Source: Strigamia acuminata (taxonomy: Eukaryota). Taken from it: a stretch of DNA of 64,000 nucleotides. The position numbers and the translations under genes were made by a program. Below are positions 8,062 to 64,000 of this stretch, one piece after another. Numbering within the stretch: position 1 is the first letter of the stretch; each line of letters starts with the position of its first letter. The notes under the pieces are model-generated. The model did no database searches, was not told where the DNA came from, and was given only the letters and a program-made list of their open reading frames with translations. The stretch lies in contig OX442314.1 of assembly GCA_949358305.1 (NCBI GenBank), positions 372,001 to 436,000 of the forward strand, in the 5' to 3' direction.

Positions 8062-8261
8062 GTGCTCCCCCTCTCTCTTGATCTGGACCGAGAGAGATCG
8101 CACATTCTTTCAAAATTAGCACGTGCAGCTTTCAGCTACAAAAACCCCTAGTTAGGTCTGGTCTACATCGAAATTCTGATATACATTTGCTCGCGATTTT
8201 GAAATCCAAAAGAAGCTTAAAACTTAAACGACTTAAGCTTAAACGACTTGAGCTTGACTTG

Positions 8262-11200: not shown

Positions 11201-11808
11201 CAATCCGAAAATGCGATTGGTTGGTAAATTCCATCCGCAACTCCCTTTTCCAGTTCCTTTTCCACTGCCGTACGCAAGGCTACAGGTACAGGCCTCGCAC
11301 GAAAGAAGCGCGGCTTCACACCTTCTTTGAGGTAAAGTTGTACAGGGGGACCTGTATATACACCCAAAGAGGCCTCAAAAACATCCTTGTACTCCTGAAG
11401 TAACAGTCTCAATACAGTGTCCTCCTCTTCCAACTCCGCAATTAAGTCTTGTGGGGTCCTTGACCCATTGATCCCGTGGTGCATCCCTTGTTGTCTCTCC
11501 AGCCTGTTGATCAGGAAAGTTTTCACAGAACGAGATTGCCTCGTGGCTTCCCTGCCCAGCAGTATTGTGGCCTGACCAGCAGTGACCAAGAACCGCAACT
11601 TCACTTCTTCATCTCCTACCCTAACCGGCAGGTAGATCTCCCCAAGTGCGGGTCTCCTTTCGCCAAAATAACCAATCAACATAATGTTGGTCGGTTGTAC
11701 AGGCCATGTCACGTTGCTTAAGGTCATCCACTTCATCAAAGTATCTCTGGAGATCAACGAGTATCTTGAACCAGTGTCCACTGTTGCTACCACGGGGATC
11801 TTGCCAAG
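8262..11808 (-). pseudogene. pol: Gypsy pol (protease, RT, RNase H, integrase, long C-terminal tail) with a frameshift in RNase H at ~10310
   Basis: VDTGS protease; RLCGDYR, LPFG and YQDD in RT; VDASPVGVGAVL, YSQTDREALA, TDHKPL, VADALSR in RNase H; HEGHHG...CVVC, IHIDFAGP, SDNAT, SNGRAER in integrase. Confidence 0.92.
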
Positions 11809-12870: not shown

Positions 12871-13519
12871 TCCGGATAGACTTGTCTGCGACTCCTGGTT
12901 TACGCCAGCTACCAATTCCGGGTCATCGTCACTATCCACCGCCGCGGGGTATCTTGTCAGTCCTGACTCCGTGATTGCGATGAAATCCGGTCCAACAATC
13001 CAGATAGGTGCAACAATTCAGTGAGTGCTCTCACTTCCCAGACCTGCCCTGACCCCCTTCCCGTAGGTACTTCTCCGTGGAGCTAAGCTGGGTTCAGCAC
13101 TGGCCAGCCTCTCCTGGGAGGTGGCTTGATGTGTGCAGCTATTATCCCCTTACCGTACCCTAGTGGGAAAAGGAAACCCTAGCACTACCTAAGCTGAGAG
13201 CTAATAATGACATAGTGTTGCGTTGGCATTGTCAGGAGCATTCTATGGGCTCTTTGTTTCCTGGTGTCATTGTTGCGGCCCTTTGTTGTTCAGATGATGG
13301 CTGGAGTCATTGTTGACCTCCTGGTGGCAGAATTGTAGGTTAGGCTTAATAACCCTAGATAGGCCTAACTGGGCCTAGTAACTCTAGCAAGTCCCAAGTA
13401 ATACTAGTTAGGCCTAAGCCAGGCCTAACTATCTGAAAATACAGAAAAGAAAGACAGAATCTATTCCAAAAAAAAAATTTTTAAAGATACAGTTTACCCT
13501 GTCTCTACTCCTGGGTCCT

Positions 13520-13537
13520 GTCCCTGTCAGGGTGCCA
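13520..13537 (-). promoter_or_regulatory. Primer-binding site, tRNA-Lys(UUU)-like
   Basis: TGGCACCCTGACAGGGAC resembles the tRNA-Lys3 PBS TGGCGCCCGAACAGGGAC; 1 nt from the 5' LTR. Confidence 0.7.
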
Positions 13538-13538
13538 C

Positions 13539-13775
13539 TTTACCATCTTTGCCCTGGAGATGGGAAATAAAACACAGGAAACCAGTTGGGCCAAAACTTC
13601 ATCCTCCACTCTTCTAAACAGAGTAGATTTATTTGTCAGTAACCTGACCAACTGTCACTAGAGGGAAAAAGATGAAAGCTACATGCTGCTTTGTACATTG
13701 TATTATTGACAATACAATGTACTAATTCAATGCACTAAAGCCTGCATAAATTCCTTGTGGTGTTAATACACCACA
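13539..13775 (-). repeat. 5' LTR of gypsy element
   Basis: Direct repeat of 7825-8061. Confidence 0.93.
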
Positions 13776-16021: not shown

Positions 16022-16028
16022 TATATAA
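16022..16028 (+). promoter_or_regulatory. TATA box of repeat-protein gene copy 1
   Basis: TATATAA 53 nt upstream of the ATG, conserved in copy 2 (34127-34133). Confidence 0.65.
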
Positions 16029-16074: not shown

Positions 16075-19000
16075 ATGAAGATGTTTCTCCGAAGAGAGAG
16101 ACATACTTGGCTGTTCGTGGTCTTGCAGCTTTCAGGTAAATTTTTTCAGTTTGGAACAAAGAAAACTTTTTGTTTGACGTTGTAGTAGAAAAATACTTTG
16201 AAATAATAATAAATCATGATTCATACATTTATTTCAGTTATTGGATTGATATCATCGTACAACTTGATTCCAAAACACTTCAATGATGTAAATAAGGCTT
16301 TGCACCATGTAGTAGGCCATGTACAACATCGAATTCCTTCAGCAACCACAACTCATAGTCGAACATATTCCACTTCATCGTCTTCTGGTGGAACGTCTTT
16401 TGGTGGAACGTCTTGGAGTGGATCATCTTCTGGTGGATCTTCTTCTGGTGGATCATCTTCCAGTGGAACTTCTAGTAGATCATCTTCCAGTCAAAGTGTT
16501 GAATATTTCACTGTTGATCTGCAGTTTGTTCAACTGATTCAAGAAGTTAGAGCCTCAACTAAAGCGGTTAAGGTCCATGCTCAAAGACATCAAGATGGCC
16601 TCTACAAACTGACAGTAACCACTGACAAAGGAACAAAAACATATGACAAATTATCAAAAGCCACGTTTGACTTGTTTGCCAAATTACTTAAAAATCCAAG
16701 ATTGCAAATCAAAGAAGTAGGAAAAGTTGGGTCAAAAGTTAAAATTGCTGTTTCTCCTGAACCACCAAAACCAACAAATATTTTTAAAATAAAACCCCAA
16801 CTTTTGGATGCAGTCAATAGAATAAGAAAAGGAGGTTATTCAATTCAAATATCAACAAAAGGCAATAAGTACACAATAACTGTGACTAATAAGTCAAGCG
16901 GAAAAAAGGAAACCTATGCTGATCTACCGGCAAATACTGGCGAAGCTTTTATTCGATTGCTCAAAGATCCTTCTTTACAGTACCAAGTTATAGGCAAATC
17001 AGGAGACGAAGATGTATTGTTTATTCCCAACTACAGTGGAAAGCAAACAAAAATAACAGTTAAATCGCTGTTTTTGACATTGCTAAAACAGGTGCGAAAT
17101 CATCCGAGCAATCATATAAGAATTCAACCCGGAACCGATGGTAAATATGAGTTGACCGTTGAAAATGGAAAAAAACAGTCCAAAACGTACAAGCACATAG
17201 ACCCAAACCTACTTTTCTCTTTTGTCGAACTTATTAAGAATCCTAATTTGCAATATAAAGTCTCGCCAGCTGCTAATGGAGAATTTACTGTGACTGTTGT
17301 GGATCAACCTGACGACCTCAACACGGGGACAATTGGAAAAGGAATTGAGTACTACATCGTTAAACCACAATTCGTTCAACTGATCAGGCAAGTCCGGAAA
17401 TCAACTAAAGCGGTTAAAATCAAATATCAACCGGAAGACGATGGCTTGTTGACGGTAACCTTAACGACTGACAAAGGAACAAAAACCTACAAGAAAATAC
17501 CTAGAGACATTTTATCCTTGTTTGTAAAATTACTCAAGAATCCAACTTTGCAAATCACGGAAGTGGGAAAAGAGGGTTCCAACGTAAAAATTGCTGTATC
17601 TCCTGAACCGCCAAAACCATCAAATATTATTACGGTGAAGCCCGAATTCTTAGAGGTCGTAAAAAAAATAAGGAAAGGAGGCTATTCAATTCAAATAGCA
17701 ACATCAGGTGATACGTACACAATAACTGTAACTGACGACTCAAATGGAAAAAAGAAAACCTATTCAGATGTGCCAGCTAAAATTGGTGATGCTTTTATTC
17801 GATTGGTTAAGAATCCCTCATTGCCGTATGAAATTTTAGGCAAATCAGGAGATAAATCTTATTTGTTTATTCCTGACAATAGTGCAGCGCAAACAACATT
17901 TACAGTGAAACCACTGTTTTTGACATTGCTGAAACAAGTACGAGAACATCCAGAAAATAGAATTCAAATTCAACCAGGAACCGATGGCAAATATGAGTTA
18001 ACTATCCATGAAGGGAAGAAAGGATCTAAAACATACAAGCACATTGATCCAAATTTGCTATTTGTTTTTATTAAACTTATTAAGAATCCTGATTTGCAAT
18101 TTAAGCTTTCACCAGCAGCTACTGGACAATTTACGATTACGCTTGAAGAGCAACCTGAGGACCTCAACATTGGGACCCTTGATTCTGATAAATTTTTAGA
18201 ATTAATAACCAAGGCTAAGAGTGATCCATCATACAACTTGAGAATTGGCACTGGGAAAAATGGTTTGGAGCTTGTCATCACTCACAATGGCAAAACAAAA
18301 AAATATCCATTACCGGCTAAATTCTTAAACATTATTGTTCAATTGCTTCAATCGCTTAGGACTCCAAAAACAGTCAAGCATAATGGCCAAACAACTTTTA
18401 TTCTGTCGGACGAAGAAACACAAACACCAATCCAAGTAGACGTCGAGTTCACTGATTTGATTGAAGAAATCAAGAAGAATCCGACATCAAACTTCAAGTT
18501 CAAGGTTGAACCTTCCAAAAATGGAAAATTCAATGTTATTGTCTTCATCGATGGAAAACCAAAAGAATTGAAAGACCAATCTCCTGAAGCTGTAAAGTTT
18601 CTGATGAAAGTAACAAAAAATCCAAAACTACCAATTCATGTCACCAAAGAAAAACCTAAACCACAACAAGATCAAACTACTTTTATTGTGGCGGACGAAG
18701 AAACAAACTCATTGATTGAAGTCGACGTTGAGTTCACTGATTTGATTGAAGAGATAAAGAAGAATCCAAAGTCAAACATCAAGTACAAGGTGGAACCTTC
18801 TAAAAACGGAAAATCCAATATTATTGTCTACATTAATGGAAAACCAAATAAGTTGAAAGACCAATCCCCTGAAGCTATCAAGTTTCTGATCAAAGTAACA
18901 AAAAATCCAAATTTGCCGATTCACATTGTCAAAGAAGAACCTAAACCTAGAGAACCAACTTTTGTTGTGACGGACGATGAAACAAACACACCGATAACAG

Positions 19001-22000
19001 TAGACCTTGAGTTCACTGATTTGATCAAAGAGATAAAAAAGAATCCAACATCCAACATCAAATACAAGGTGGAACCATCCAAAAACGGAAAATCTACTAT
19101 TGTTGTCTACATTAATGGAAAACCGAAGATTTTGAAAGACCAAACCCCTGAAGCTATCAAGTTTCTGATAAAAGTAACAAAAAATCCAAAGTTGCCGATT
19201 CACATTGTCAAAGAAGAACCTAAACATGACGAACCAACTTTTGTTGTGACGGACGAAGAGACAAACACTCCGATAACAGTAGACCTTGAGTTCACTGATT
19301 TGATCGAAGAGATAAAGAAGAATCCAAAGTCAAACATCAAGTACAAGGTGGAACCTTCTAAAAATGGAAAATCTAACATTATTGTCTTTATTAATGGAAA
19401 ACCAAAGAAGTTGAAAGACCAATCTCCTGAAGCTATCAAGTTTCTGATCAAAGTTACCAAAAATCCAAAATTGCCGATTCACATTGTTAAAGAAAAACCT
19501 GGACATAAAGAACCACACCATGAAAAACCTGGACATAAAGAACCTCACCATGAAAAACCTGGACATAAAGAACCTCACCATGAAAAACCTGGACATAAAG
19601 AACCTCACCATGAAAAACCTGGACATAAAGAACCACACCATGAAAAACCTGGACATAAAGAACCACATCATGAAAAACCTGGACATAAAGAACCACACAG
19701 AAAAGAACATAAGCCCAAGGATGTTATTCATGTTATTTCACCTGGAAAGACTTCAACCGATCCCATTATTTCAATACCAAAGAATCAATTGGCACTTATC
19801 CAGACAATTAAATCAGCTCCTCAATTATCCATTTCCATTGCTCCAGACGGTCCAAATTTCAAAATTACTGTCAGTGATGGTCAAGATACCAAAACCTATC
19901 CAGATATTACTCCTGAATTACTGAATAAGTTAATTACTATTAGGAATCAAAAGGATTTACCATTTGAAATTACCCCTTCAGATGATCCAAAGAAGGTAAA
20001 CATTAATGTTCCAAATAAGAAAAAACCAGATGTCGAAAATATTGATATTGATATCGATTATCTGAAACCTTTGGAAATTGTAAGACATCAACCAGATACT
20101 GAGATTGAAATTAAGCCAGACAATGAAGGTACTTTTACAGTAACAATCAAACCAAAAGATGGAAGCAAACCTCACACCTTGAAGCATGTGCATCCAAATG
20201 TTTTGAATTTGATCAGCAAGCTGAAAACAACTCCACACGTACAATTCAGAGTAAAGTCAGACAAGCGTGGAAAGATTCAATTGGTCGTACCAAAACACCA
20301 ATCGCAACCTGTTCATACAAAACTAACTCCAGAGATCATCGATTTAATAAAGAACATCAAACAAAAACCACAACCGAAAGTTTCATTCAAACCAGAAAAA
20401 CCGGGAACTTTTACCGTTGTTGTGCAAAATGGTAAAAAACCAGAGAAAGAGTACAAGCATATTAGTCCCGAATTGATTCCAGTTATCACCAAATTATACA
20501 GTGAACCTACTGTAGAATATGAAATCAAACCGGGCAAAGATGACACAATCGAATTTGTTCCAACTGAACCAAGTAGCAACAGCCATCGCTATGAAGTGAA
20601 GCCTAATGTTCTAGATATCATTAGAGATATTAAACAAAATCCAGATACAGAAATCAACGTCAAGCCAGGACCAGACCACACCTTCGATATTAAAACCAAA
20701 GAACCACACAAGAAGCCAAAGACTTATCCTCATGTCAACCAAGAGACATTAGACTTGATCATAGATTTGAAGAGTCATCCAGATGTTTCTTTCACTGTTA
20801 AACCAACACCGAAAGGTAACTTTTACATCACGGTACCAAAATCAAATGTCAAAGAAGATAATGTGCAAATAACACCGGATGTTCTGGAATTGATAAAACT
20901 TCTCCATTCTCCAAAGGATGTTAAGCTTAATATCAAACCACAAAAAGATGGAGCATTCACTGTCATTGTCAAAGATGGTAAAAAAGAGCATGTCTATCCG
21001 AATATTCCAAAAAGAGTATTGCCAGTTGTTATAAAATTGTATAAAAATCCTCACAGAAACATACAATTGAAGCCAACAAGTGACAATCAAATCTATGGTA
21101 ATGTGCCCGAAGACCTGCCTAAAACTACGACAGCTGTGGTTAACAAAGAAGATGTGGATTTGATCCATCACATTAAACGACATCCGCACACAGATGTCAC
21201 TATTAAGCGTGACAGAAAAAATCGACCCACGGTTGTAGTTGGTCACGGTCCAGACAGAGAGACATATCCTCGTGTTGCTCCTAATATTGTTAACCTTGCC
21301 ACTAAGTTACTCACTGAACCAAAACTTCCATTCCATATTTATACTGGTAGAGATGGAAGACATGTCCTGACTATTCCAGTTCGACCAAAAGAGTTAATAG
21401 TTCCAAATGTATCCAAAGATTTGCTTAAATTTGTTGACAAACATCGCTCTCATCCAAATCTTGAAGTGGTCGTGACCAGTTCTGAGATTCCAGACCACTA
21501 TGACGTAATATTCCAAGAGCAAAACAAACCAATTAAACATTTTAAACATCTAGAACCCAAGATTGTTCAATTAGTCGTGGAATTGTTTAATGCACCAACC
21601 ACGGAGTACCGCGTCCAGCCACAACCTGATGGAAAGTTAACAGTCAGACCATCCAGAGATGACGTACCAACATTTGATGTGCCAATTACTCCAAAAGATC
21701 TATTGTTGATTCGGGACTTCAGAAACCCAAAACTCAACTCTGTCATTGTTTCACCAGGTAGCAAACCAAACACCTACAAGGTTGTCTTTGATGACCTTTA
21801 TGACCGCTCAAATCCACTCTCTGAGGACAATGTCGAACCCTTATTCCTTAACTTTCTCGTCCGCTTGTACACTGAACCAAGTCTTCCACTAAAGTCGGCC
21901 GTTGACGAAGATGGACATTTAATTGTAACTGCACCGAAAAGAGTTTCTCACAACATTTTACACGATGTAAGCCCAGAAGTACTAAACTTTCTGACCAAGC

Positions 22001-23190
22001 ACAAACCAACTCCCAAGGATACATTTTCCATTGTGTTGGATAAGAAAAAGCCGCATTCGACAGAGCCTGATTCTTACACTTTTGATCTTAATGGCAAAAA
22101 GTTTCCTCATCAGTCGCCTACCACCGTTCAATTAGCAAGTATTCTGCTTTCTCAGCCTAAGTTACATACAAGAATTTTGAATGAAAGGGATGGCAAAGCT
22201 ACCGTAGAAATTACTGCACACAGACCAAATCTGGTTTTCAGAAATGTTCATCCAGCCTTCTTGAAGACTTCACAGATAGCACGGCATAGTCCTAATGTGG
22301 AACTTTCGATCACCCGAAACCCAGATAATGAAATCAACCTTGTAATTTCAAATGGACCGAATAAGCTGATAATTGAAAATCTTTCACCTATTATTACTCA
22401 GCTGTTTGTGGCTATGTTCAGTAGACCGGAATTCCCGTATAACTTTTATATAGATGAGGACAATTCTGTGACTATGGTTATCAGGAAAGATAGCTTGCAT
22501 CCAGTTTTCTCTCACATTAAACCTGAATTTTTTGATTTTGTCAAAAAAGTGCGAATTTCCAAGCTTTTTAACATTGTGATAAAGCATGATGAAGGTGCTT
22601 ACGAAGTGGAAGTAACAACTCACAATGACAAGCCAAGAACTTTCCAACTGACACCTGAAGAACTTCAATTGCTCGTTCTCTTTGCTACTTATCGAGATTT
22701 GACTTTCAAAGAAAACAAGGAAAAAGATGGAACAACCCTGGAAATTCCTGTTGTCATTCAAGCCAGCTCTACTGTACTGGATTTTGCTAAACTTTGTGCT
22801 GCTACAAAAGTCCATTCGTTCCCAGAATACAAAGAAACGGATGTCAAAGAACCAACTGAAGAACCGAGTGATGAACCCGAGTATCGACTGAGACCTGAGC
22901 TAGTTTTTGAACCAAAAATTGTTTTGAGACCAGAGTACCGAAGGAGACCTAATTACAGACGTCAATTTGACAGCATTACGAGAGATTATAATAATGCCAA
23001 AAGAAATTATGCCAAACATCCTGGAAGACTGGAAGTTGGACATTTTGAACGGCCACGACATCACACCCGCAGACACCATCGTCCCCAAGGACACGAACTG
23101 TATTACAAATTCAAGAAGGAAGGTGCCTACGACACTTGCAAATGTAACGAAGCTCATAGAAGTACCTCTGAAAGATTCAGAGAATTTTAA
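16075..23190 (+). CDS. Giant secreted repeat protein, copy 1 (~2337 aa; exon 1 16075-16135, exon 2 16238-23190)
   Basis: Exon 1 MKMFLRRERHTWLFVVLQLS joins in phase via a GT-AG intron to VIGLISSYN..., forming a signal peptide; 7-kb open exon; AATAAA ~40 nt after the stop. Confidence 0.9.
19492..19701 (+). repeat. Coding 30-bp VNTR (EKPGHKEPHH) x7
   Basis: Counted directly. Confidence 0.95.
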
Positions 23191-23829
23191 TTGCAATGTT
23201 TTAAAGAATCTGTACATCCCTCAGACTGAAATAAAGTAGTTTATAGAAGCATAGCAATTGATCATCTTTCTTGTCTTTAAATAATTTCATTTTTGTAGTT
23301 TTTACAGGTCCTACGTGGGTTTTATTGAATGACTTATTCTTACAATAAAGATCCTGAGGAGTTCAATTCGATAAAATAAAATAAAAAAAGGATTGGGAGA
23401 GGAACGGAAAAAGAAAAGAGGACTCGATTACGTTAGAGCATTCAATACTTAGAACTGTGGCCCTAATTCCAGCCGTATCACTGGTGTAATGGCACAAGAA
23501 AGTTGCCCATAACACCAGAATTGTAATCTAACTAAGCCAAAACAACCAATAAATAACTAAACCTTTGATTACCTGCCAAAAGAAACCAACAAACCGTTTG
23601 ATTGATTAAAAGGGAAAAAGCTTATTTTAGCAAATAAAATAAATATTTTATTACCATATAAATAAAATCCATTATTCTAATCACCTTTTACACTGAAATT
23701 CATTGAAAAAAAAACAGAACTACTTTTCCGCAAAGTAGAGCACAGTTCACAGTTAGGACAACATTATATCAGTTCACAAAGTATACCAAGACATGTTTGT
23801 TGCAAAGAGGAACTTATTTTCTAGCATCT

Positions 23830-34179: not shown

Positions 34180-37100
34180 ATGAAGATGTTTCTCCAAAGA
34201 GAGAGACATACTTGGCTGTTCGTGGTTTTGCAGCTTTCAGGTAATTTTTTTCAGTTTGGAAAGAGAAAACTTCTTGTTTGACATTGAAATAATTATAAAT
34301 CATGATTCATACATTTATTTCAGTTATTGGATTGATATCATCGTACAACTTGATTCCAAAACACTTCAATGATGTAAATAAGGCTTTGCACCATGTAGTA
34401 GGCCATGTACAACATCGAATTCCTTCAGCAACCACAACTCATAGTCGAACATATTCCACTTCATCGTCTTCTGGTGGAACGTCTTGGAGTGGATCTTCTT
34501 CCAGTGGATCATCTTCAAGTGGATCATCTTCTGGTGGATCTTCTTCTGGTGGATCATCTTCCAGTGGAACTTCTAGTAGATCATCTTCCAGTCAAAGTGT
34601 TGAATATTTCACTGTTGATCTGCAGTTTGTTCAACTGATTCAAGAAGTTAGAGCCTCAACTAAAGCGGTTAAGGTCCATGCTCAAAGACATCAAGATGGC
34701 CTCTACAAACTGACAGTAACCACTGACAAAGGAACAAAAACATATGACAAATTATCAAAAGCCACGTTTGACTTGTTTGCCAAATTACTTAAAAATCCAA
34801 GATTGCAAATTAAAGAAGTAGGAAAAGTTGGGTCAAAAGTTAAAATTGCTGTTTCTCCTGAACCACCAAAACCAACAAATATTTTTAAAATAAAATCCCA
34901 ACTTTTGGATGCAGTCAATAGAATAAGAAAAGGAGGTTATTCAATTCAAATATCAACAAAAGGCAATAAGTACACAATAACTGTGACTAATAAGTCAAGC
35001 GGAAAAAAGGAAACCTATGCTGATCTACCGGCAAATACTGGCGAAGCTTTTATTCGATTGCTCAAAGATCCTTCTTTACAGTACCAAGTTATAGGCAAAT
35101 CAGGAGACGAAGATGTATTGTTTATTCCCAACTACAGTGGAAAGCAAACAAAAATAACAGTTAAATCGCTGTTTTTGACATTGCTAAAACAGGTGCGAAA
35201 TCATCCGAGCAATCATATAAGAATTCAACCCGGAACCGATGGTAAATATGAGTTGACCGTTGAAGATGGAAAAAAACAGTCCAAAACCTACAAGCACATA
35301 GACCCAAACCTACTCTTTTCTTTTGTCGAACTTATTAAGAATCCTAATTTGCAATATAAAGTCTCGCCAGCTGCTAATGGAGAATTTACTGTGACTGTTG
35401 TGGATCAACCTGACGACCTCAACACGGGGACAATTGGAAAAGGAATTGAGTACTACATCGTTAAACCACAATTCGTTCAACTGATCAGGCAAGTCCGGAA
35501 ATCAACTAAAGCGGTTAAAATCAAATATCAGCCAGAAGACGATGGCTTGTTGACGGTAACCTTAACGACTGACAAAGGAACAAAAACCTACAAGAAAATA
35601 CCTAGAGACATTTTATCCTTGTTTGTAAAATTACTCAAGAATCCAACTTTGCAAATCACGGAAGTGGGAAAAGAGGGTTTCAACGTAAAAATTGCTGTAT
35701 CTCCTGAACCGCCAAAACCATCAAATATTATTACGGTGAAGCCCGAATTCTTAGAAGTCGTAAAAAAAATAAGGAAAGGAGGCTATTCAATTCAAATAGC
35801 AACATCAGGTGATACGTACACAATAACTGTAACTGACGACTCAAATGGAAAAAAGAAAACCTATTCAGATGTGCCAGCTAAAATTGGTGATGCTTTTATT
35901 CGATTGGTTAAGAATCCCTCATTGCCGTATGAAATTTTAGGCAAATCAGGAGATAAATCTTATTTGTTTATTCCTGACAATAGTGCAGCGCAAACAACAT
36001 TTACAGTGAAACCACTGTTTTTGACATTGCTGAAACAAGTACGAGAACATCCAGAAAATAGAATTCAAATTCAACCAGGAACCGATGGCAAATATGAGTT
36101 AACTATCCATGAAGGGAAGAAAGGATCTAAAACATACAAGCACATTGATCCAAATTTGCTATTTGTTTTTATTAAACTTATTAAGAATCCTGATTTGCAA
36201 TTTAAGCTTTCACCAGCAGCTACTGGACAATTTACGATTACGCTTGAAGAGCAACCTGAGGACCTCAACATTGGGACCCTTGATTCTGATAAATTTTTAG
36301 AATTAATAACCAAGGCTAAGAGTGATCCATCATACAACTTGAGAATTGGCACTGGGAAAAATGGTTTGGAGCTTGTCATCACTCACAATGGCAAAACAAA
36401 AAAATATCCATTACCGGCTAAATTCTTAAACATTATTGTTCAATTGCTTCAATCGCTTAGGACTCCAAAAACAGTCAAGCATAATGGCCAAACAACTTTT
36501 ATTCTGTCGGACGAAGAAACACAAACACCAATCCAAGTAGACGTCGAGTTCACTGATTTGATTGAAGAAATCAAGAAGAATCCGACATCAAACTTCAAGT
36601 TCAAGGTTGAACCTTCCAAAAATGGAAAATTCAATGTTATTGTCTTCATCGATGGAAAACCAAAAGAATTGAAAGACCAATCTCCTGAAGCTGTAAAGTT
36701 TCTGATGAAAGTAACAAAAAATCCAAAACTACCAATTCATGTCACCAAAGAAAAACCTAAACCACAACAAGATCAAACTACTTTTATTGTGGCGGACGAA
36801 GAAACAAACTCATTGATTGAAGTCGACGTTGAGTTCACTGATTTGATTGAAGAGATAAAGAAGAATCCAAAGTCAAACATCAAGTACAAGGTGGAACCTT
36901 CTAAAAACGGAAAATCCAATATTATTGTCTACATTAATGGAAAACCAAATAAGTTGAAAGACCAATCCCCTGAAGCTATCAAGTTTCTGATCAAAGTAAC
37001 AAAAAATCCAAATTTGCCGATTCACATTGTCAAAGAAGAACCTAAACCTAGAGAACCAACTTTTGTTGTGACGGACGATGAAACAAACACACCGATAACA

Positions 37101-40100
37101 GTAGACCTTGAGTTCACTGATTTGATCAAAGAGATAAAAAAGAATCCAACATCCAACATCAAATACAAGGTGGAACCATCCAAAAACGGAAAATCTACTA
37201 TTGTTGTCTACATTAATGGAAAACCGAAGATTTTGAAAGACCAAACCCCTGAAGCTATCAAGTTTCTGATAAAAGTAACAAAAAATCCAAAGTTGCCGAT
37301 TCACATTGTCAAAGAAGAACCTAAACATGACGAACCAACTTTTGTTGTGACGGACGAAGAGACAAACACTCCGATAACAGTAGACCTTGAGTTCACTGAT
37401 TTGATCGAAGAGATAAAGAAGAATCCAAAGTCAAACATCAAGTACAAGGTGGAACCTTCTAAAAATGGAAAATCTAACATTATTGTCTTCATTAATGGAA
37501 AACCAAAAAAGTTGAAAGACCAATCCCCTGAAGCTATCAAGTTTCTGATCAAAGTTACCAAAAATCCAAAATTGCCGATTCACATTGTTAAAGAAAAACC
37601 TGGACATAAAGAACCACACCATGAAAAACCTGGACATAAAGAACCACACCATGAAAAACCTGGACATAAAGAACCTCACCATGAAAAACCTGGACATAAA
37701 GAACCACACCATGAAAAACCTGGACATAAAGAACCTCACCATGAAAAACCTGGACATAAAGAACCACACCATGAAAAACCTGGACATAAAGAACCACACC
37801 ATGAAAAACCTGGACATAAAGAACCACACAGAAAAGAACATAAGCCCAAGGATGTTATTCATGTTATTTCACCTGGAAAGACTTCAACCGATCCCATTAT
37901 TTCAATACCAAAGAATCAATTGGCACTTATCCAGACAATTAAATCAGCTCCTCAATTATCCATTTCCATTGCTCCAGACGGTCCAAATTTCAAAATTACT
38001 GTCAGTGATGGTCAAGATACCAAAACCTATCCAGATATTACTCCTGAATTACTGAATAAGTTAATTACTATTAGGAATCAAAAGGATTTGCCTTTTGAAA
38101 TTACCCCTTCAGATGATCCGAAGAAGGTAAACATTAATGTTCCAAATAAGAAAAAACCAGATGTTGAAAATATTGATATAAATATCGATTATCTGAAACC
38201 TTTGGAAATTGTAAGACATCAACCAGATACTGAGATTGAAATTAAGCCGGACAATGAAGGTACTTTTACAGTAACAATCAAACCGAAAGATGGAAGCAAA
38301 CCTCACACCTTGAAGCATGTGCATCCAAATGTTTTGAATTTGATCAGCAAGCTGAAAACAACTCCACACGTACAATTCAGAGTAAAGTCAGACAAGCGTG
38401 GAAAGATTCAATTGGTCGTACCAAAACACCAATCGCAACCTGTTCATACAAAACTAACTCCAGAGATCATCGATTTAATAAAGAACATCAAACGAAAACC
38501 ACAACCGAAAGTTTCATTCAAACCAGAAAAACCAGGAACTTTTACCGTTGTTGTACAAAATGGTAAAAAACCAGAAAAAGAGTACAAGCATATTAGTCCC
38601 GAATTGATTCCAGTTATCACCAAATTATACAGTGAACCTGCTGTAGAATATGAAATCAAACCAGGCAAAGACGAAACAATCGAATTTGTTCCAACTGAAC
38701 CAAGTAGCAACAGCCATCGCTATGAAGTGAAGCCTAATGTTCTAGATATCATCAGAGATATTAAACAAAATCCAGATACAGAAATCAACGTCAAGCCAGG
38801 ACCAGACCACACCTTCGATATTGAAACCAAAGAACCACATAAGAAGCCAAAGACTTATCCTCATGTCAACCAAGAGACATTAGACTTGATCATAGATTTG
38901 AAGAGTCATCCAGATGTTTCTTTCACTGTTAAACCAACACCGAAAGGTAACTTTTACATCACGGTACCAAAATCAAATGTCAAAGAAGATAATGTGCAAA
39001 TAACTCCGGATGTTCTGGAATTGATAAAACTTCTCCATTCTCCAAAGGATGTTAAGCTTAATATCAAACCACAAAAAGATGGAGCATTTACTGTCATTGT
39101 CAAAGATGGTAAAAAAGAGCATAACTATCCGAATATTCCAAAAAGAGTATTGCCAGTTGTTATAAAATTGTATAAAAATCCTCACAGAAACATACAATTG
39201 AAGCCAACAAGTGACAATCAAATCTATGGTAATGTGCCCGAAGACCTACCTAAAACTACGACAGCTGTAGTTAACAAAGATGATGTGGATTTGATCCATC
39301 ACATTAAACGACATCCGCACACAGATGTCACTATTAAGCGTGACAGAAAAAATCGACCCACGGTTGTAGTTGGTCATGGTCCAGACAGAGAGTCATATCC
39401 TCGCGTCGCTCCTAATATTGTTAACCTTGCCACTAAGTTACTCACTGAACCAAAACTTCCATTCCATATTTATACTGGTAGAGATGGAAGACATGTCCTG
39501 ACTATTCCAGTTCGACCAAAAGAGTTAATAGTTCCAAATGTATCCAAAGGTTTGCTTAAATTTGTTGACAAACATCGCTTTCATCCAAATCTTGAAGTGG
39601 TCGTGACCAGTTCTGAGATTCCAAACCACTATGACGTAATATTCCAAGAGCAAAACAAACCAATTAAACATTTTAAACATCTAGAACCCAAGATTGTTCA
39701 ATTAGTCGTGGAATTGTTTAATGCACCAACCACGGAGTATCGCGTCCAACCACAACCTGATGGAAAGTTAACAGTCAGACCATCCAGAGATGACGTACCA
39801 ACATTTGATGTGCCAATTACTCCGAAAGATCTATTGTTGATTCGGGACTTCAGAAACCCAAAACTCAACTCTGTCATTGTTTCACCAGGTAGCAAACCAA
39901 ACACCTACAAGGTTGTCTTTGATGACCTTTATGACCGCTCAAATCCACTCTCTGAGGACAATGTCGAACCCTTATTCCTTAACTTTCTCGTCCGCTTGTA
40001 CACTGAACCAAGTCTTCCACTAAAGTCGGCCGTTGACGAAGATGGACATTTAATTGTAACTGCACCGAAAAGAGTTTCTCACAACATTTTACACGATGTA

Positions 40101-41321
40101 AGCCCAGAAGTATTAAACTTTCTGACCAAGCACAAACCAACTCCCAAGGATACATTTTCCATTGTGTTGGATAAGAAAAAGCCGCATTCGACAGAGCCTG
40201 ATTCTTACACTTTTGATCTTAATGGCAAAAAGTTTCCTCATCAGTCGCCTACCACCGTTCAATTAGCAAGTATTCTGCTTTCTCAGCCTAAGTTACATAC
40301 AAGAATTTTGAATGAAAGGGATGGCAAAGCTACCGTAGAAATTACTGCACACAGACCAAATCTGGTTTTCAGAAATGTGCATCCAGCCTTCTTGAAGACT
40401 TCACAGATAGCACGGCATAGTCCTAATGTGGAACTTTCGATCACCCGAAACCCAGATAATGAAATCAACCTTGTAATTTCAAATGGACCGAATAAGCTGA
40501 TAATTGAAAATCTTTCACCTATTATTACTCAGCTGTTTGTGGCTATGTTCAGTAGACCGGAATTCCCGTATAACTTTTATATAGATGAGGACAATTCTGT
40601 GACTATGGTTATCAGGAAAGATAGCTTGCATCCAGTTTTCTCTCACATTAAACCTGAATTTTTTGATTTTGTCAAAAAAGTGCGAATTTCCAAGCTTTTT
40701 AACATTGTGATAAAGCATGATGAAGGTGCTTACGAAGTGGAAGTAACAACTCACAATGACAAGCCAAGAACTTTCCAACTGACACCTGAAGAACTTCAAT
40801 TGCTCGTTCTCTTTGCTACTTATCGAGATTTGACTTTCAAAGAAAACAAGGAAAAAGATGGAACAACCCTGGAAATTCCTGTTGTCATTCAAGCCAGCTC
40901 TACTGTACTGGATTTTGCTAAACTTTGTGCTGCTACAAAAGTCCATTCGTTCCCAGAATACAAAGAAACGGATGTTGAAGAACCAACTGAAGAACCGAGT
41001 GATGAACCCGAGTATCGACTGAGACCTGAGCTAGTTTTTGAACCCAAAATTGTTTTGAGACCAGAGTACCGAAGGAGACCTGATTACAGACGTCAATTTC
41101 ACAGCATTACAAGAGATTACAATAATGCCAAAAGAAATTATGCCAAACATCCTGGAAGACTGGAAGTTGGGCATTTTGAACAGCCACGACATCACACCCG
41201 CAGACACCATCGTCCCCAAGGACACGAACTGTATTACAAATTCAAGAAGGAAGGTGCCTACGACACTTGCAAATGTAACGAAGCTCATAGAAGTACCTCT
41301 CAAAGATTCAGAGAATTTTAA
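34180..41321 (+). CDS. Giant secreted repeat protein, copy 2 (~2352 aa; exon 1 34180-34240, exon 2 34324-41321)
   Basis: Same exon structure, splice sites and TATA box as copy 1; intact ORF. Confidence 0.9.
37593..37832 (+). repeat. Coding 30-bp VNTR (EKPGHKEPHH) x8
   Basis: Counted directly. Confidence 0.95.
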
Positions 41322-57059: not shown

Positions 57060-60000
57060 TTAAAATTCTCTGAATCTTTGAGAGGTACTTCTATGAGCTT
57101 GGTTACATTTGCAAGTGTCGTAGGCACCTTCCTTCTTGAATTTGTAATACAGTTCGTGTCCTTGGGGACGATGGTGTCTGCGGCTGTGATGTCGTGGCCG
57201 TTCAAAATGTCCAACTTCCAGTCTTCCAGGATGTTTGGCATAATTTCTTTTGGCAGTATTATAATCTCTCGTAATGCTGTCAAATTGACGTCTGTAATCA
57301 GGTCTCCTTCGGTACTCTGGTCTCAAAACAATTTTTGGTTCAAAAACTAGCTCAGGTCTCAGTCGATACTCGGGTTCATCACTCGGTTCTTCAGTTGGTT
57401 CTTCAACATCCGTTTCTTTGTATTCTGGGAACGAATGGACTTTTGTAGCAGCACAAAGTTTAGCAAAATCCAGTACGGTAGAGCTGGCTTGAATGACGAC
57501 AGGAATTTCCAGGGTTGTTCCATCTTTTTCCTTGTTTTCTTTGAAAGTCAAATCTCGATAAGTAGCAAAGAGAACGAGCAATTGAAGTTCTTCAGGTGTC
57601 AGTTGGAAAGTTCTTGGCTTGTCATTGTGAATGGTTACTTCCACTTCGTAAGCACCTTCATCATGCTTTATCACAATGTTAAAAAGCTTGGAAATTCGCA
57701 CTTTTTTGACAAAATCAAAAAATTCAGGCTTAATGTGAGAGAAAACTGGATGCAAGCTATCTTTCCTGATAACCATAGTCACAGAATTGTCCTCATCTAT
57801 ATAAAAGTTATACGGGAATTCCGGTCTACTGAACATAGCCACAAACAGCTGAGTAATAATAGGTGAAAGATTTTCAATTATCAGCTTATTCGGTCCATTT
57901 GAAATTACAAGGTTGATTTCATTATCTGGGTTTCGAGTAATCGAAAGTTCCACATTGGGACTATGCCGTGCTATCTGTGAAGTCTTCAAGAAGGCTGGAT
58001 GCACATTTCTGAAAACCAGATTTGGTCTGTGTGCAGTAATTTCTACGGTAGCTTTGCCATCCCTTTCATTCAAAATTCTTGTATGTAACTTAGGCTGAGA
58101 AAGCAGGATACTTGCTAATTGAACAGTGGTAGGCGACTGATGAGGAAACTTTTTGCCATTAAGATCAAAAGTGTAAGAATCAGGCTTTGTCGAATGCGGC
58201 TTTTTCTTATCCAACACAATGGAAAATGTATCCTTTGGAGTTGGTTTGTGCTTGGTCAGAAAGTTTAATACTTCTGGGCTTACATCGTGTAAAATGTTGT
58301 GAGAAACTCTTTTCGGTGCAGTTACAATTAAATGTCCATCTTCGTCAACGGCCGACTTTAGTGGAAGACTTGGTTCAGTGTACAAGCGGACGAGAAAGTT
58401 AAGGAATAAGGGTTGGATATTGTCCTCAGACAGTGGATTTGAGCGGTCATAAAGGTCATCAAACACAACCTTGTAGGTGTTTGGTTTGCTACCTGGTGAA
58501 ACAATGACAGAGTTGAGTTTTGGGTTTCTGAAGTCCCGAATCAACAATAGATCTTTCGGAGTAATTGGCACATCAAATGTTGGTACGTCATCTCTGGATG
58601 GTCTGACTGTTAACTTTCCATTAGGTTGTGGTTGGACGCGATACTCCGTGGTTGGTGCATTAAACAATTCCACGACTAATTGAACAATCTTGGGTTCTAG
58701 ATGTTTAAAATGTTTAATTGGTTTGTTTTGCTCTTGGAATATTACGTCATAGTGGTCTGGAATCTCAGAACTGGTCACGACCACTTCGAGATTTGGATGA
58801 GAGCGATGTTTGTCAACGAATTTAAGCAAATCCTTGGATACATTTGGAACTATTAACTCTTTTGGTCGAACTGGAATAGTCAGGACATGTCTTCCATCTC
58901 TACCAGTATAAATATGGAATGGAAGTTTTGGTTCAGTGAGTAACTTAGTGGCAAGGTTAACAATATTAGGAGCAACACGAGGATATGACTCTCTGTCTGG
59001 ACCGTGACCAACTACAACCGTGGGTCGATTTTTTCTGTCACGCTTAATAGTGACTTCTGTGTGCGGATGTCGTTTAATGTGATGGATCAAATCCACATCA
59101 TCTTTGTTAACTACAGCTGTCGTAGTTTTAGGCAGGTCTTCGGGCACATTACCATAGATTTGATTGTCACTAGTTGGCTTCAATTGTATGTTTCTGTGAG
59201 GATTTTTATACAATTTTATAACAACCGGCAATACTCTTTTTGGAATATTCGGATAGACATGCTCTTTTTTACCATCTTTGACAACGACAGTGAATGCTCC
59301 ATCTTTTTGTGGTTTGATATTAAGCTTAACATCCTTTGGAGAATGGAGAAGTTTAATCAATTCCAGAACATCCGGAGTTATTTGCACATTATCTTCTTTG
59401 ACATTTGATTTTGGTACCGTGATGTAAAAGTTACCTTTCGGTGTTGGTTTAACAGTGAAAGAAACATCTGGATGACTCTTCAAATCTATGATCAAGTCTA
59501 ATGTCTCTTGGTTGACATGAGGATAAGTCTTTGGCTTCTTGTGTGGTTCTTTGGTTTCAATATCGAAGGTGTGGTCTGGTCCTGGCTTGACGTTGATTTC
59601 TGTATCTGGATTTTGTTTAATATCTCTGATGATATCTAGAACATTAGGCTTCACTTCATAGCGATGGCTGTTGCTACTTGGTTCAGTTGGAACAAATTCG
59701 ATCGTGTCATCTTTGCCTGGTTTGATTTCATATTCTACAGTTGGTTCACTGTATAATTTGGTGATAACTGGAATCAATTCGGGACTAATATGCTTGTACT
59801 CTTTTTCTGGTTTTTTACCATTTTGTACAACAACGGTAAAAGTTCCCGGTTTTTCTGGTTTGAATGAAACTTTCGGTTGTGGTTTTCGTTTGATGTTCTT
59901 TATTAAATCGATGATCTCTGGAGTTAGTTTTGTATGAACAGGTTGCGATTGGTGTTTTGGTACGACCAATTGAATCTTTCCACGCTTGTCTGACTTTACT

Positions 60001-63000
60001 CTGAATTGTACGTGTGGAGTTGTTTTCAGCTTGCTGATCAAATTCAAAACATTTGGATGCACATGCTTCAAGGTGTGAGGTTTGCTTCCATCTTTTGGTT
60101 TGATTGTTACTGTAAAAGTACCTTCATTGTCTGGCTTAATTTCAATCTCAGTATCTGGTTGATGTCTTACAATTTCCAAAGGTTTCAGATAATCGATATC
60201 AATATCAATATTTTCGACATCTGGTTTTTTCTTATTTGGAACATTAATGTTTACCTTCTTCGGATCATCTGAAGGGGTAATTTCAAAAGGCAAATCCTTT
60301 TGATTCCTAATAGTAATTAACTTATTCAGTAATTCAGGAGTAATATCTGGATAGGTTTTGGTATCTTGACCATCACTGACGGTAATTTTGAAATTTGGAC
60401 CGTCTGGAGCAATGGAAATGGATAACTGAGGAGCTGATTTGATTGTCTGGATAAGTGCCAATTGATTCTTTGGTATTGAAATAATAGGATCAGTTGAAGT
60501 TTTTCCAGGTGAAATAACATGAATAACTTCTTTGGGCTTATGTTCTTTTCTGTGTGGTTCTTTGTGTCCAGGTTTTTCATGGTGTGGTTCTTTATGTCCA
60601 GGTTTTTCATGGTGCGGTTCTTTATGTCCAGGTTTTTCATGGTGTGGTTCTTTATGTCCAGGTTTTTCATGGTGTGGTTCTTTATGTCCAGGTTTTTCAT
60701 GGTGCGGTTCTTTATGTCCAGGTTTTTCATGGTGCGGTTCTTTATGTCCAGGTTTTTCATGGTGCGGTTCTTTATGTCCAGGTTTTTCATGGTGCGGTTC
60801 TTTATGTCCAGGTTTTTCATGGTGTGGTTCTTTATGTCCAGGTTTTTCATGGTGTGGTTCTTTATGTCCAGGTTTTTCATGATGTGGTTCTTTATGTCCA
60901 GGTTTTTCATGGTGCGGTTCTTTATGTCCAGGTTTTTCATGGTGCGGTTCTTTATGTCCAGGTTTTTCATGGTGTGGTTCTTTATGTCCAGGTTTTTCAT
61001 GATGTGGTTCTTTATGTCCAGGTTTTTCATGATGTGGTTCTTTATGTCCAGGTTTTTCATGGTGCGGTTCTTTATGTCCAGGTTTTTCATGGTGTGGTTC
61101 TTTATGTCCAGGTTGTTCTTTAACAATGTGAATCGGCAATTTTGGATTTTTGGTTACTTTTATCAGAAACTTGATAGCTTCAGGGGATTGGTCTTTCAAC
61201 TTCTTTGGTTTTCCATTAATGAAGACAATAATGTTAGATTTTCCGTTTTTAGAAGGTTCCACCTTGTACTTGATGTTTGACTTTGGATTCTTTTTTATCT
61301 CTTCGATCAAATCAGTGAACTCAAGGTCTACTGTTATCGGAGTGTTTGTCTCTTCGTCCGTCACAACAAAAGTTGGTTCGTCATGTTTAGGTTCTTCTTT
61401 GACAATGTGAATCGGCAACTTTGGATTTTTTGTTACTTTTATCAGAAACTTGATAGCTTCAGGGGTTTGGTCTTTCAAAATCTTAGGTTTTCCATTAATG
61501 TAGACAATAATGTTAGATTTTCCGTTTTTGGATGGTTCCACCTTGTATTTGATGTTTGATGTTGGATTCTTTTTTATCTCTTCGATCAAATCAGTGAACT
61601 CAAGGTCTACTGTTATCGGTGTGTTTGTTTCATCGTCTGTCACAACAAAAGTTGGTTCCTCATGTTTAGGTTCTTCTTTGACAATGTGAATAGGCAAATT
61701 TGGATTTTTTGTTACTTTTATCAGAAACTTGATAGCTTCAGGGGATTGGTCTTTCAACTTATTTGGTTTTCCATTAATGTAGACAATAATATTGGATTTT
61801 CCGTTTTTAGAAGGTTCCACCTTGTACTTGATGTTTGACTTTGGATTCTTCTTTATCTCTTCGATCAAATCAGTGAACTCAACGTCGACTTCAATCAATG
61901 AGTTTGTTTCTTCATCCGCCACAATAAAAGTAGTTTGATCTTGTTGTGGTTTAAGTTTTTCTTTGGTGACATGAATTGGTAGCTTTGGATTTTTTGTTAC
62001 TTTCATCAGAAACTTTACAGCTTCAGGAGATTGGTCTTTCAACTCTTTTGGTTTTCCATCGATGAAGACAATAACATTGAATTTTCCATTTTTGGAAGGT
62101 TCAACCTTGAACTTGAAGGTTGATGTCGGATTCTTCTTGATTTCTTCAATCAAATCAGTGAACTCGACGTCTACTTGGATTGGTGTTTGTGTTTCTTTGT
62201 CCGACAGAATAAAAGTTGTTTGGCCATTATGCTTGACTGTTTTTGGAGTCCTAAGCGATTGAAGCAATTGAACAATAATGTTTAAGAATTTAGCCGGTAA
62301 TGGATATTTTTTTGTTTTGCCATTGTGAGTGATGACAAGCTCCAAACCATTTTTCCCAGTGCCAATTCTCAAGTTGTATGATGGATCACTCTTAGCCTTG
62401 GTTATTAATTCTAAAAATTTATCAGAATCAATGGTTCCAATGTTGAGGTCCTCAGGTTGCTCTTCAAGTGTAATCGTAAATTGTCCAGTAGCTGATGCTG
62501 GTGAAAGCTTAAATTGCAAATCAGGATTCTTAATAAGTTTAATAAAAACAAAAAGCAAATTTGGATCAATGTGCTTGTATGTTTTAGAACCTTTCTTCCC
62601 TTCATGAATAGTTAACTCATATTTGCCATCAGTTCCTGGTTGAATTTGAATTCTATTTTCTGGATGTTCTCGTACTTGTTTCAGCAATGTCAAAAACAGT
62701 GGTTTTACTGTAAATGTTGTTTGCGTTGCACTATTGTCAGGAATAAACAAATAAGATTTATCTCCTGATTTGCCTAAAACTTCGTATGGCAATGAGGGAT
62801 TCTTAACCAATCGAATAAAGGCGTCGCCAATTTTTGCTGGCACATCAGAATAGATTTTCTTTTTCCCATTTGAGTCGTCAGTCACAGTTATTGTGTACGT
62901 ATCACCTGATGTTGCTATTTGAATTGAATAGCCTCCTTTCCTTATTTTCTTTACGACCTCTAAGAATTCGGGCTTCACTGTAATAATATTTGATGGTTTT

Positions 63001-64000
63001 GGCGGTTCAGGAGATACAGCAATTTTTACGTTGGAACCCTCTTTTCCTACTTCCGTGATTTGCAAAGTTGGATTCTTGAGTAATTTTACAAACAAGGATA
63101 AAATGTCTCTAGGTATTTTCTTGTAGGTTTTTGTTCCTTTGTCAGTCGTTAAAGTTACCGTCAACAAGCCATCGTCTTCCGGCTGATATTTGATTTTAAC
63201 CGCTTTAGTTGATTTCCGGACTTGCCTGATCAGTTCAACGAATTGTGGTTTAACGATGTAGTATTCAATTCCTTTTCCAATTGTCCCCGTATTGAGGTCG
63301 TCAGGTTGATCCACAACAGTCACAGTAAATTCCCCATTAGCAGCTGGCGAGACTTTATATTGCAAATTAGGATTCTTAATAAGTTCGACAAAAGAGAAAA
63401 GTAGGTTTGGGTCTATGTGCTTGTAGGTTTTGGACTGTTTCTTTCCATCTTCAACGGTCAACTCATATTTACCATCGGTTCCGGGTTGAATTCTTATATG
63501 ATTGCTCGGATGATTTCGCACCTGTTTTAGCAATGTTAAAAACAGCGATTTAACTGTTATTTTTGTTTGCTTTCCACTGTAGTTGGGAATAAACAATACA
63601 TCTTCGTCTCCTGATTTGCCTATAACTTGGTACTGTAATGAAGGATCTTTGAGCAATCGAATAAAAGCTTCGCCAGTATTTGTCGGTAAATCAGCATAGG
63701 TTTCCTTTTTCCCACTTGACTTATTAGTCACAGTTATTGTGTACTTATTGCCTTTTGTTGATATTTGAATTGAATAACCTCCTTTTCTTATTCTATTGAC
63801 TGCATCCAAAAGTTGGGGTTTTATTTTAAAAATATTTGTTGGTTTTGGTGGTTCAGGAGAAACAGCAATTTTAACTTTAGACCCAACTTTTCCTACTTCT
63901 TTGATTTGCAGACTTGGATTTTTAAGTAATTTGGCAAACAAGTCAAACGTGGCTTTTGATATTTTGTCATATGTTTTTGTTCCTTTGTCAGTGGTTACTG
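57060..64000 (-). CDS. Giant secreted repeat protein, copy 3 (5' end beyond the window)
   Basis: Near-identical to copies 1 and 2; the frame stays open past the ORF-track start to the window edge; convergent with WDR81. Confidence 0.92.
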   Translation of the reverse strand, partial: VTTDKGTKTYDKISKATFDLFAKLLKNPSLQIKEVGKVGSKVKIAVSPEPPKPTNIFKIKPQLLDAVNRIRKGGYSIQISTKGNKYTITVTNKSSGKKETYADLPTNTGEAFIRLLKDPSLQYQVIGKSGDEDVLFIPNYSGKQTKITVKSLFLTLLKQVRNHPSNHIRIQPGTDGKYELTVEDGKKQSKTYKHIDPNLLFSFVELIKNPNLQYKVSPAANGEFTVTVVDQPDDLNTGTIGKGIEYYIVKPQFVELIRQVRKSTKAVKIKYQPEDDGLLTVTLTTDKGTKTYKKIPRDILSLFVKLLKNPTLQITEVGKEGSNVKIAVSPEPPKPSNIITVKPEFLEVVKKIRKGGYSIQIATSGDTYTITVTDDSNGKKKIYSDVPAKIGDAFIRLVKNPSLPYEVLGKSGDKSYLFIPDNSATQTTFTVKPLFLTLLKQVREHPENRIQIQPGTDGKYELTIHEGKKGSKTYKHIDPNLLFVFIKLIKNPDLQFKLSPASATGQFTITLEEQPEDLNIGTIDSDKFLELITKAKSDPSYNLRIGTGKNGLELVITHNGKTKKYPLPAKFLNIIVQLLQSLRTPKTVKHNGQTTFILSDKETQTPIQVDVEFTDLIEEIKKNPTSTFKFKVEPSKNGKFNVIVFIDGKPKELKDQSPEAVKFLMKVTKNPKLPIHVTKEKLKPQQDQTTFIVADEETNSLIEVDVEFTDLIEEIKKNPKSNIKYKVEPSKNGKSNIIVYINGKPNKLKDQSPEAIKFLIKVTKNPNLPIHIVKEEPKHEEPTFVVTDDETNTPITVDLEFTDLIEEIKKNPTSNIKYKVEPSKNGKSNIIVYINGKPKILKDQTPEAIKFLIKVTKNPKLPIHIVKEEPKHDEPTFVVTDEETNTPITVDLEFTDLIEEIKKNPKSNIKYKVEPSKNGKSNIIVFINGKPKKLKDQSPEAIKFLIKVTKNPKLPIHIVKEQPGHKEPHHEKPGHKEPHHEKPGHKEPHHEKPGHKEPHHEKPGHKEPHHEKPGHKEPHHEKPGHKEPHHEKPGHKEPHHEKPGHKEPHHEKPGHKEPHHEKPGHKEPHHEKPGHKEPHHEKPGHKEPHHEKPGHKEPHHEKPGHKEPHHEKPGHKEPHHEKPGHKEPHHEKPGHKEPHHEKPGHKEPHRKEHKPKEVIHVISPGKTSTDPIISIPKNQLALIQTIKSAPQLSISIAPDGPNFKITVSDGQDTKTYPDITPELLNKLITIRNQKDLPFEITPSDDPKKVNINVPNKKKPDVENIDIDIDYLKPLEIVRHQPDTEIEIKPDNEGTFTVTIKPKDGSKPHTLKHVHPNVLNLISKLKTTPHVQFRVKSDKRGKIQLVVPKHQSQPVHTKLTPEIIDLIKNIKRKPQPKVSFKPEKPGTFTVVVQNGKKPEKEYKHISPELIPVITKLYSEPTVEYEIKPGKDDTIEFVPTEPSSNSHRYEVKPNVLDIIRDIKQNPDTEINVKPGPDHTFDIETKEPHKKPKTYPHVNQETLDLIIDLKSHPDVSFTVKPTPKGNFYITVPKSNVKEDNVQITPDVLELIKLLHSPKDVKLNIKPQKDGAFTVVVKDGKKEHVYPNIPKRVLPVVIKLYKNPHRNIQLKPTSDNQIYGNVPEDLPKTTTAVVNKDDVDLIHHIKRHPHTEVTIKRDRKNRPTVVVGHGPDRESYPRVAPNIVNLATKLLTEPKLPFHIYTGRDGRHVLTIPVRPKELIVPNVSKDLLKFVDKHRSHPNLEVVVTSSEIPDHYDVIFQEQNKPIKHFKHLEPKIVQLVVELFNAPTTEYRVQPQPNGKLTVRPSRDDVPTFDVPITPKDLLLIRDFRNPKLNSVIVSPGSKPNTYKVVFDDLYDRSNPLSEDNIQPLFLNFLVRLYTEPSLPLKSAVDEDGHLIVTAPKRVSHNILHDVSPEVLNFLTKHKPTPKDTFSIVLDKKKPHSTKPDSYTFDLNGKKFPHQSPTTVQLASILLSQPKLHTRILNERDGKATVEITAHRPNLVFRNVHPAFLKTSQIARHSPNVELSITRNPDNEINLVISNGPNKLIIENLSPIITQLFVAMFSRPEFPYNFYIDEDNSVTMVIRKDSLHPVFSHIKPEFFDFVKKVRISKLFNIVIKHDEGAYEVEVTIHNDKPRTFQLTPEELQLLVLFATYRDLTFKENKEKDGTTLEIPVVIQASSTVLDFAKLCAATKVHSFPEYKETDVEEPTEEPSDEPEYRLRPELVFEPKIVLRPEYRRRPDYRRQFDSITRDYNTAKRNYAKHPGRLEVGHFERPRHHSRRHHRPQGHELYYKFKKEGAYDTCKCNQAHRSTSQRFREF
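60549..61118 (-). repeat. Coding 30-bp VNTR (EKPGHKEPHH) x19
   Basis: Counted directly. Confidence 0.95.

Follow-up and report, generated by a model that had tools for sequence, protein, structure and literature searches.

A giant, probably secreted repeat protein of Strigamia acuminata built from an uncatalogued 90-residue unit

The 64,000-nt stretch of Strigamia acuminata DNA analyzed here (the window) contains a very large gene for a chain of repeated units, and this locus raises two questions: whether the unit belongs to a described domain family, and what such a protein may do. The gene lies on the forward strand and consists of exon 1 (16075..16135), which encodes the first 20 codons of the predicted signal peptide, a GT..AG intron of 102 nt (16136..16237), and exon 2 (16238..23190), which encodes the remainder of the protein including the stop. 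The spliced ORF (exon 1 + exon 2) encodes 2337 aa (262 kDa) with no internal stops. An earlier note had proposed that the signal peptide is formed only by splicing, and this was borne out, as removal of the 102-nt intron joins the leader to the protein and the unspliced frame closes immediately. The leader has a basic start, a hydrophobic stretch at aa 11–27 and an end of small residues. The most hydrophobic 15-residue windows of the protein were those of aa 11–27, no second hydrophobic segment was as strong as the leader, and homologous leaders were found in the Strigamia maritima gene models T1J5A2 and T1J594. On the basis of hydropathy and homology, the 2337-aa product likely carries a signal peptide. 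An in-frame ATG within the intron (16216) could be the alternative start of a short hydrophobic leader. A TATA-like box (16022..16028, forward strand; function presumed from its sequence) lies 53 nt upstream of the ATG, and a polyadenylation-like AATAAA (23230..23235, forward strand), which is also found behind copies 2 and 3 of the gene, lies 40 nt past the stop.

In run X3, a single contig of depth 2.2, whose shorter side spans 61 letters, skipped exactly the 102 nt of the intron; the contigs of runs X1 and X2 did not show this joint. The joint supports splicing if run X3, whose type is unrecorded, was derived from RNA; the alternative is a processed DNA copy. Contigs of X1 and X2 skipped 70 or 74 nt inside the intron (window positions 16141–16216), which suggests copies or alleles with different intron lengths.

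The mature protein has a regular layout, all of it on the forward strand. The predicted mature N-terminus is an amphipathic helix (16258..16323; aa 28–49), which was kept in both close relatives covering that part, and its hydrophobic moment of 0.52–0.62 was matched by at most one of 500 shuffles (best window). It is followed by a Gly/Ser low-complexity tract (16372..16497; 57% Ser, 24% Gly), by units 1–6 in the order A-B-C-A'-B'-C' (16501..18162, delimited by HMM), and by unit D with four E units (18175..19491), of which the latter form a 279-nt tandem array of about 85% likeness. The His-rich tract (19492..19698) contains seven His/Lys/Glu/Pro/Gly decamers (28% His) and separates these units from units 12–22 (19762..22764), which are mutually divergent and each conserved by position in S. 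maritima. The protein ends in an Arg/Glu-rich tail of 141 aa (22765..23187; 65% identity in S. maritima, no Pfam match) with a CxC pair (23137..23145) that is also present in T1J5A2 and T1J222. One unit has a mass of 10 kDa, and the halves flanking the His tract have masses of 120 and 132 kDa. The linkers between units are short and Pro-rich and share no cleavage motif, no furin site (RxK/RR) was found in the protein, and the N-half units are cationic (net charge +1 to +8). The residue counts agreed with the composition described earlier, namely rich in Lys and Pro (12.1% and 8.8%), almost free of Trp and Met (2 and 5 residues), and with Cys only in the C-terminal part (positions 2207, 2321 and 2323); Thr, Val, Leu and Ile each account for about 7.7%, Tyr for 2.7% and Ala for 2.4%.

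The repeats were detected by HMM, as self-BLAST of the protein showed the diagonal only. Iteration of an HMM started from unit A settled on 22 units, with 11 on either side of the His tract; they scored 61–104 bits, compared with at most 5.5 bits in 50 shuffled proteins. In leave-one-out searches, from which near-duplicates were also removed, all 22 units scored 31.5–81.6 bits, and the best controls reached 11.3 bits (100 shuffles per unit) and 11.4 bits (reversed units). The 22 units of about 90 aa, 11 on each side of the tract, were thus recovered as the earlier note had counted them. Its view that each unit comprises two related half-repeats was likewise upheld: in an alignment of 70 units, taken from the 2337-aa protein and its six relatives, half 1 matched half 2 with an hhalign probability of 97.5, compared with 1.3 for the reversed control. 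The paired units are alike (A/A' 67%, B/B' 61%, C/C' 73%; E units 74–85%), the 11 C-half units share a mean identity of 21% among themselves, and no column is invariant among the 22 units.

No described domain family was recovered, which is in line with the earlier reading. None of the 22 units passed the curated Pfam cut-offs (best E 0.0065), and NCBIfam gave no matches. The whole protein reached 23.3 bits for Rdx (cut-off 22.6) as a sum over repeats, with no significant stretch. Chitin_bind_4, the R&R cuticular family, was not among the Pfam matches of the protein or units at E 0.1, and the Pfam searches of both revealed no catalytic or receptor domain. The ESM Atlas held no usable match for units 1–3 or for T1J5A2 725–1000, and sequence searches of the PDB gave best E values of 0.027 and 0.073.

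AlphaFold2 predicted two helices and six strands per unit, in the order beta-alpha-beta-beta-beta-alpha-beta-beta. The model of units 1–3 (single sequence) had a pLDDT of 72 and a pTM of 0.35, and that of units 14–15 (nine-row alignment) had a pLDDT of 81 and a pTM of 0.49; units 17–22, which have shorter linkers, lie outside these two chain models. The units are predicted to fold singly, and no fixed packing between them is predicted because the pTM values are low, although such packing may still exist. The rigid, elongated shape put forward earlier was therefore not supported. A structure search against 48,161 chains gave none at Z ≥ 8, a Z of about 8 being the level that the tool calls common. 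The better model matched archaeal L38e (Z 6.0, rmsd 2.3 Å over 56 residues), FtsH periplasmic domains (Z 5.2–5.6), and SRP9/14 (Z about 5; SRP14 Z 5.0), and the unit profile matched eL38 with E 0.06–0.3. Against the weakest unit of the single-sequence model, the GspE/PilT N2 domain reached Z 7.1, with 83 residues superimposed at an rmsd of 3.7, and it was absent among the 50 matches listed for the better model. Foldseek matches to the DnaN/PCNA sliding clamp (E 2e-4 to 1e-2) had an rmsd of 12–20 Å and a TM of 0.11–0.22; for these predicted models they probably reflect the alternating helix/strand pattern alone. A Foldseek search of the two-unit model against the PDB and viral models gave none at E 0.001. 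The small alpha-beta-beta-beta-alpha domains of eL38, SRP9/14 and FtsH superimpose on unit residues of about 7–63, but they leave the last hairpin uncovered, share 4–17% identity, reach weak Z scores of 5–6 over about 56–65 residues, and are single intracellular or periplasmic domains, whereas the repeat protein is likely secreted. In sequence the unit forms a family that is not catalogued, and its small core is a common one. Of the new alpha/beta repeat fold that had been claimed, the alpha/beta character stood in the AlphaFold2 models, and the whole six-stranded unit is at most a candidate new fold, given the weak likeness of its core to eL38 and SRP9/14.

The gene is present in three copies with intact frames in the window, which agrees with the triplication noted earlier. 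Copy 2 (34180..41321, forward strand) is intact, encodes 2352 aa with an 83-nt intron, and sits in an 8.1-kb duplication that includes the flanks and is 97.7% identical to copy 1. Copy 3 (57060..63998, reverse strand) is inverted, has an open frame, and extends past the window at its 5' end. The numbers of His decamers are 7, 8 and 19 in copies 1, 2 and 3, respectively. The pairwise synonymous/non-synonymous differences were 42/21, 91/37 and 95/41, and the pN/pS values by simple counting were 0.14, 0.11 and 0.12 over 2135–2239 codons, with the greater part of the Gly/Ser and His tracts excluded. These ratios indicate that the three copies are under purifying selection. Moreover, some contigs differed from copy 1 by 8–9%, which suggests further paralogues outside the window, so that three copies are probably a lower bound.

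Mobile elements are also found in the window. A Gypsy-type LTR retrotransposon (7825–13775, reverse strand) contains gag, protease, RT, RNase H and integrase, and its insertion was recent, as its two terminal repeats of 237 nt are identical. Bel/Pao-like gag-protease frames (DUF1759, DUF1758; 2435–7068) lie between 876-nt direct repeats of 99.9% identity. A Gag-like frame that encodes a zinc knuckle and has internal repeats of 21 and 30 nt (27238–30548) lies between copies 1 and 2 and is flanked on both sides by integrase fragments. The abundance of LTR elements in the region and the 97.7% identity of copies 1 and 2 would suit the view that the copies arose in assembly or that the frame is a by-product of transposons. 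This view deserves hardly any credence, however: 63–136 coding differences with a strong synonymous bias separate the copies, their introns and His tracts differ in length, one copy is inverted, relatives are present in a second species, and the protein contains no transposon domain. Two other genes were also recognized, namely an FtsJ-type methyltransferase exon (44864–45130) with nearby exons, which we take to resemble the cap methyltransferase CMTR1, and a BEACH + WD40 gene (50813–56464), which is presumably WDR81-like. The GC3 of the latter was 0.81–0.84, compared with 0.32 for the repeat gene, which lies only a few kb from it.

A single-sequence search with units 1–6, run without an index against 1.84 billion representatives, gave seven matches, of which five were S. 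maritima gene models and two were proteins of Myroides (phmmer E 2e-6 as a sum over repeats). With T1J5A2 added, six uncharacterized S. maritima models were the only clear relatives in the sequence libraries searched, and they point to a geophilomorph centipede as the probable owner of the gene. Word-index searches, which are weak in that they missed four known relatives, gave one match near the length of the protein, two longer ones and none among 1639 short candidates. The unit, the leader and a His-containing tract in mid-protein are common to the S. maritima models and the 2337-aa protein. The models form two groups. The close group (T1J5A2, T1J594 and T1J222) shows about 60–86% identity per unit, an identical unit order and a CxC tail, which was found in both close relatives whose models extend to the C-terminus; it differs from the 2337-aa protein in having fewer N-half units and a single E unit, although the gene models may be partial or have collapsed repeats. 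Members of the distant group (T1IGR3, T1IH69 and T1IH68) show 20–48% identity per unit; they have no CxC, and their C-termini are formed by a Gly-rich amphipathic helix of 60–80 aa. By eye, these tails resemble those of Lithobius Glue06, Glue11 and Glue13 in the available part of that material, and both are of low complexity. The UniRef name of T1IH69, cadherin, was rejected, since no Pfam family matched at E 0.01 and each modelled unit has two helices. The six accessions were absent from the literature searched, whose coverage takes in few subscription papers. That literature held no description of the unit family, and Strigamia transcriptome supplements may list such genes.

The comparison between the two species separates the halves of the protein. 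T1J5A2 has five units before the hinge (the His tract) and T1J594 has seven whole units and one partial; because of these counts, the 11 + 11 layout is not a family trait and its symmetry looks incidental, with the reservation that the relatives' models may be collapsed. For 9 of the 11 C-half units, identity to the positional partner in S. maritima is 68–86% (the partners of units 12 and 20 are partial in that model), compared with about 21% to neighbouring units, suggesting unit-specific roles rather than a generic polymer. The N-half is dynamic: the four E units form one cluster (support 95/93) that excludes the E units of S. maritima, in a tree of 70 units whose few columns and long branches restrict its use to the E clustering and the positional partners. 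A His-containing low-complexity tract in mid-protein was found in all four relatives spanning the region. Its His content is 21% and 27% in distant relatives, where the sequence is unrelated, and 13% and 7% in close ones, the latter in T1J594.

The Myroides matches, the single intron and the low GC3 would be consistent with horizontal transfer of the unit from bacteria. The Myroides repeat of 89 aa is a surface repeat of large proteins at six loci of Myroides sp. WP-1, and it has no significant single-stretch match in Pfam or NCBIfam. Compared with the unit, it gave an hhalign probability of 18–22 and a score of 21, the best of 60 column shuffles being 16. However, the GTDB scan placed it in one genome, and since the repeat is confined to one strain and its profile support is weak, a bacterial origin is improbable.

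The protein may tentatively be regarded as a bulk material protein secreted by epidermal glands, and the best candidate for the secretion is the defensive glue of the geophilomorph sternal glands. This reading rests on the conservation of leader and splice, the selection on the protein, and the lack of a catalytic or receptor domain; the Gly/Ser tract, the His tract, the terminal CxC and the amphipathic helix point to a material function. Many proteins have low-complexity tracts or terminal Cys, however, and such features count for little on their own. Geophilomorph sternal glands release a fast-hardening protein glue that has been known since 1990 only as gel bands (review PMC7766067, excerpts). 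A more specific version, in which the main glue protein is a chain of folded 90-residue domains, instead of disordered repeats, that is cut at the His tract into about 120 + 130 kDa and cured by metal and disulfide links, is doubtful. Under the wider glue reading, small folded beads would sit on short Pro-rich linkers, and their folded, cationic character would keep the very large protein soluble within the gland. Once it is secreted, its end modules would join the chains into a network: the CxC pair could form disulfides between chains, the His tract could form pH- or Zn-dependent bridges, the Gly/Ser tract could drive condensation, and the amphipathic helix could wet waxy surfaces. The unfolding of beads under load may add toughness, and additional gene copies would raise output.

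Several observations stand against a glue. Bands of 12 and 130 kDa in Henia and of 30–67 kDa in Haplophilus, both second-hand (PMC7766067, excerpts), fit a 262-kDa protein only with cleavage. The likeness of the 10-kDa unit and the 120/132-kDa halves to the 12- and 130-kDa Henia bands is numerical only and is treated as a coincidence. Furthermore, the C-half units are not homogenized, the distant relatives lack CxC, and the hinge of T1J594 contains only 7% His. The unit was not seen among the Lithobius defensive-secretion proteins at the 60 of 200 'Glue' places viewed by eye in the available part of PMC11170834, and six short motifs had no match in the accessible telopodal Glue01–18 material of that source. 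The literature searched held no sequences of geophilomorph glue; the 1990 and 1992 Henia papers and a 2017 adhesives chapter may hold its composition.

A non-adhesive structural protein, such as a cuticle or cement layer (possibly the Zn matrix of the forcipule tip), an egg coat, or silk from the spermatophore web of males, is unlikely, though a serious contender. A secreted, repetitive and His-rich anatomy fits these uses equally, and position-specific conservation of units suits an ordered assembly. Zinc is reported in geophilomorph forcipule tips (PMC11342574, excerpts), and males produce silk-like threads whose composition is unknown (PMC8056527, excerpts). Pfam, however, revealed neither chitin-binding R&R nor another cuticle family in the protein. 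Its 2 Trp, 2.7% Tyr and 2.4% Ala also argue against such a role, as typical cuticle and silk proteins differ from this composition.

The predicted folding of the units without fixed packing, the conservation of every C-half unit in its own way, the cationic N-half and the RNA-binding nature of the nearest folds (eL38 and SRP9/14, at Z 5–6) would fit a multivalent binder of polyanions, lipids or microbes, or a polyprotein cut to 10-kDa monomers, in defence of the gut, haemolymph or surface. Such a role is slightly less likely again: the short Pro-rich linkers have no common cleavage motif, a shared binding site is not evident because no residue is invariant, and the Gly/Ser tract, the His tract and CxC are left unexplained. 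Centipede venoms typically come from genes that are secreted, multi-copy and lineage-restricted (PMC6878950, excerpts). A venom component is nevertheless very improbable, as the two venom families exclusive to S. maritima are described there as peptides, two motifs of the protein had no match in the available part of that supplement, and the 2337 aa contain three Cys.

If the glue reading is preferred, the repeat family is a concrete candidate for the sequence of geophilomorph glue, and a true glue of this kind would represent a folded-domain bioadhesive design that can be expressed in pieces. Whatever the tissue, the unit is an uncatalogued domain of 90 aa with internal two-fold repetition that is predicted to fold independently. 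The giant secreted repeat protein is of a known kind, and what is undescribed is its building block. The velvet worm slime proteins ES_P1 and ES_P2 (about 2000 aa, Pro 17%, Lys 10%) have an N-terminal Gly/Ser domain that phase-separates and few Cys near their ends (10.1101/2022.02.18.480993, PMC9999432; both in excerpts). The centipede protein resembles them in being very large and Lys/Pro-rich, with an N-terminal Gly/Ser tract and few Cys near the C-terminus. In the parts available, the ES_P1/ES_P2 repeats are of 20–30 aa and largely disordered, whereas the centipede units are of 90 aa and predicted to be folded (pLDDT 81); the centipede protein also has less Pro (9% vs. 17%) and an additional His tract. 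No onychophoran protein was among the seven matches of the unit 1–6 search, and ES_P1/ES_P2 were compared by description only. The mussel byssus is cross-linked by His-rich domains via Zn and pH (PMC6477608, excerpts). The likely secreted centipede protein shares with the mussel preCols short stretches in which His makes up about 20% or more, but the preCol His domains, as described in those excerpts, are terminal and flank collagen, whereas the centipede tract is central, rich in Lys, Glu and Pro, and a putative metal binder.
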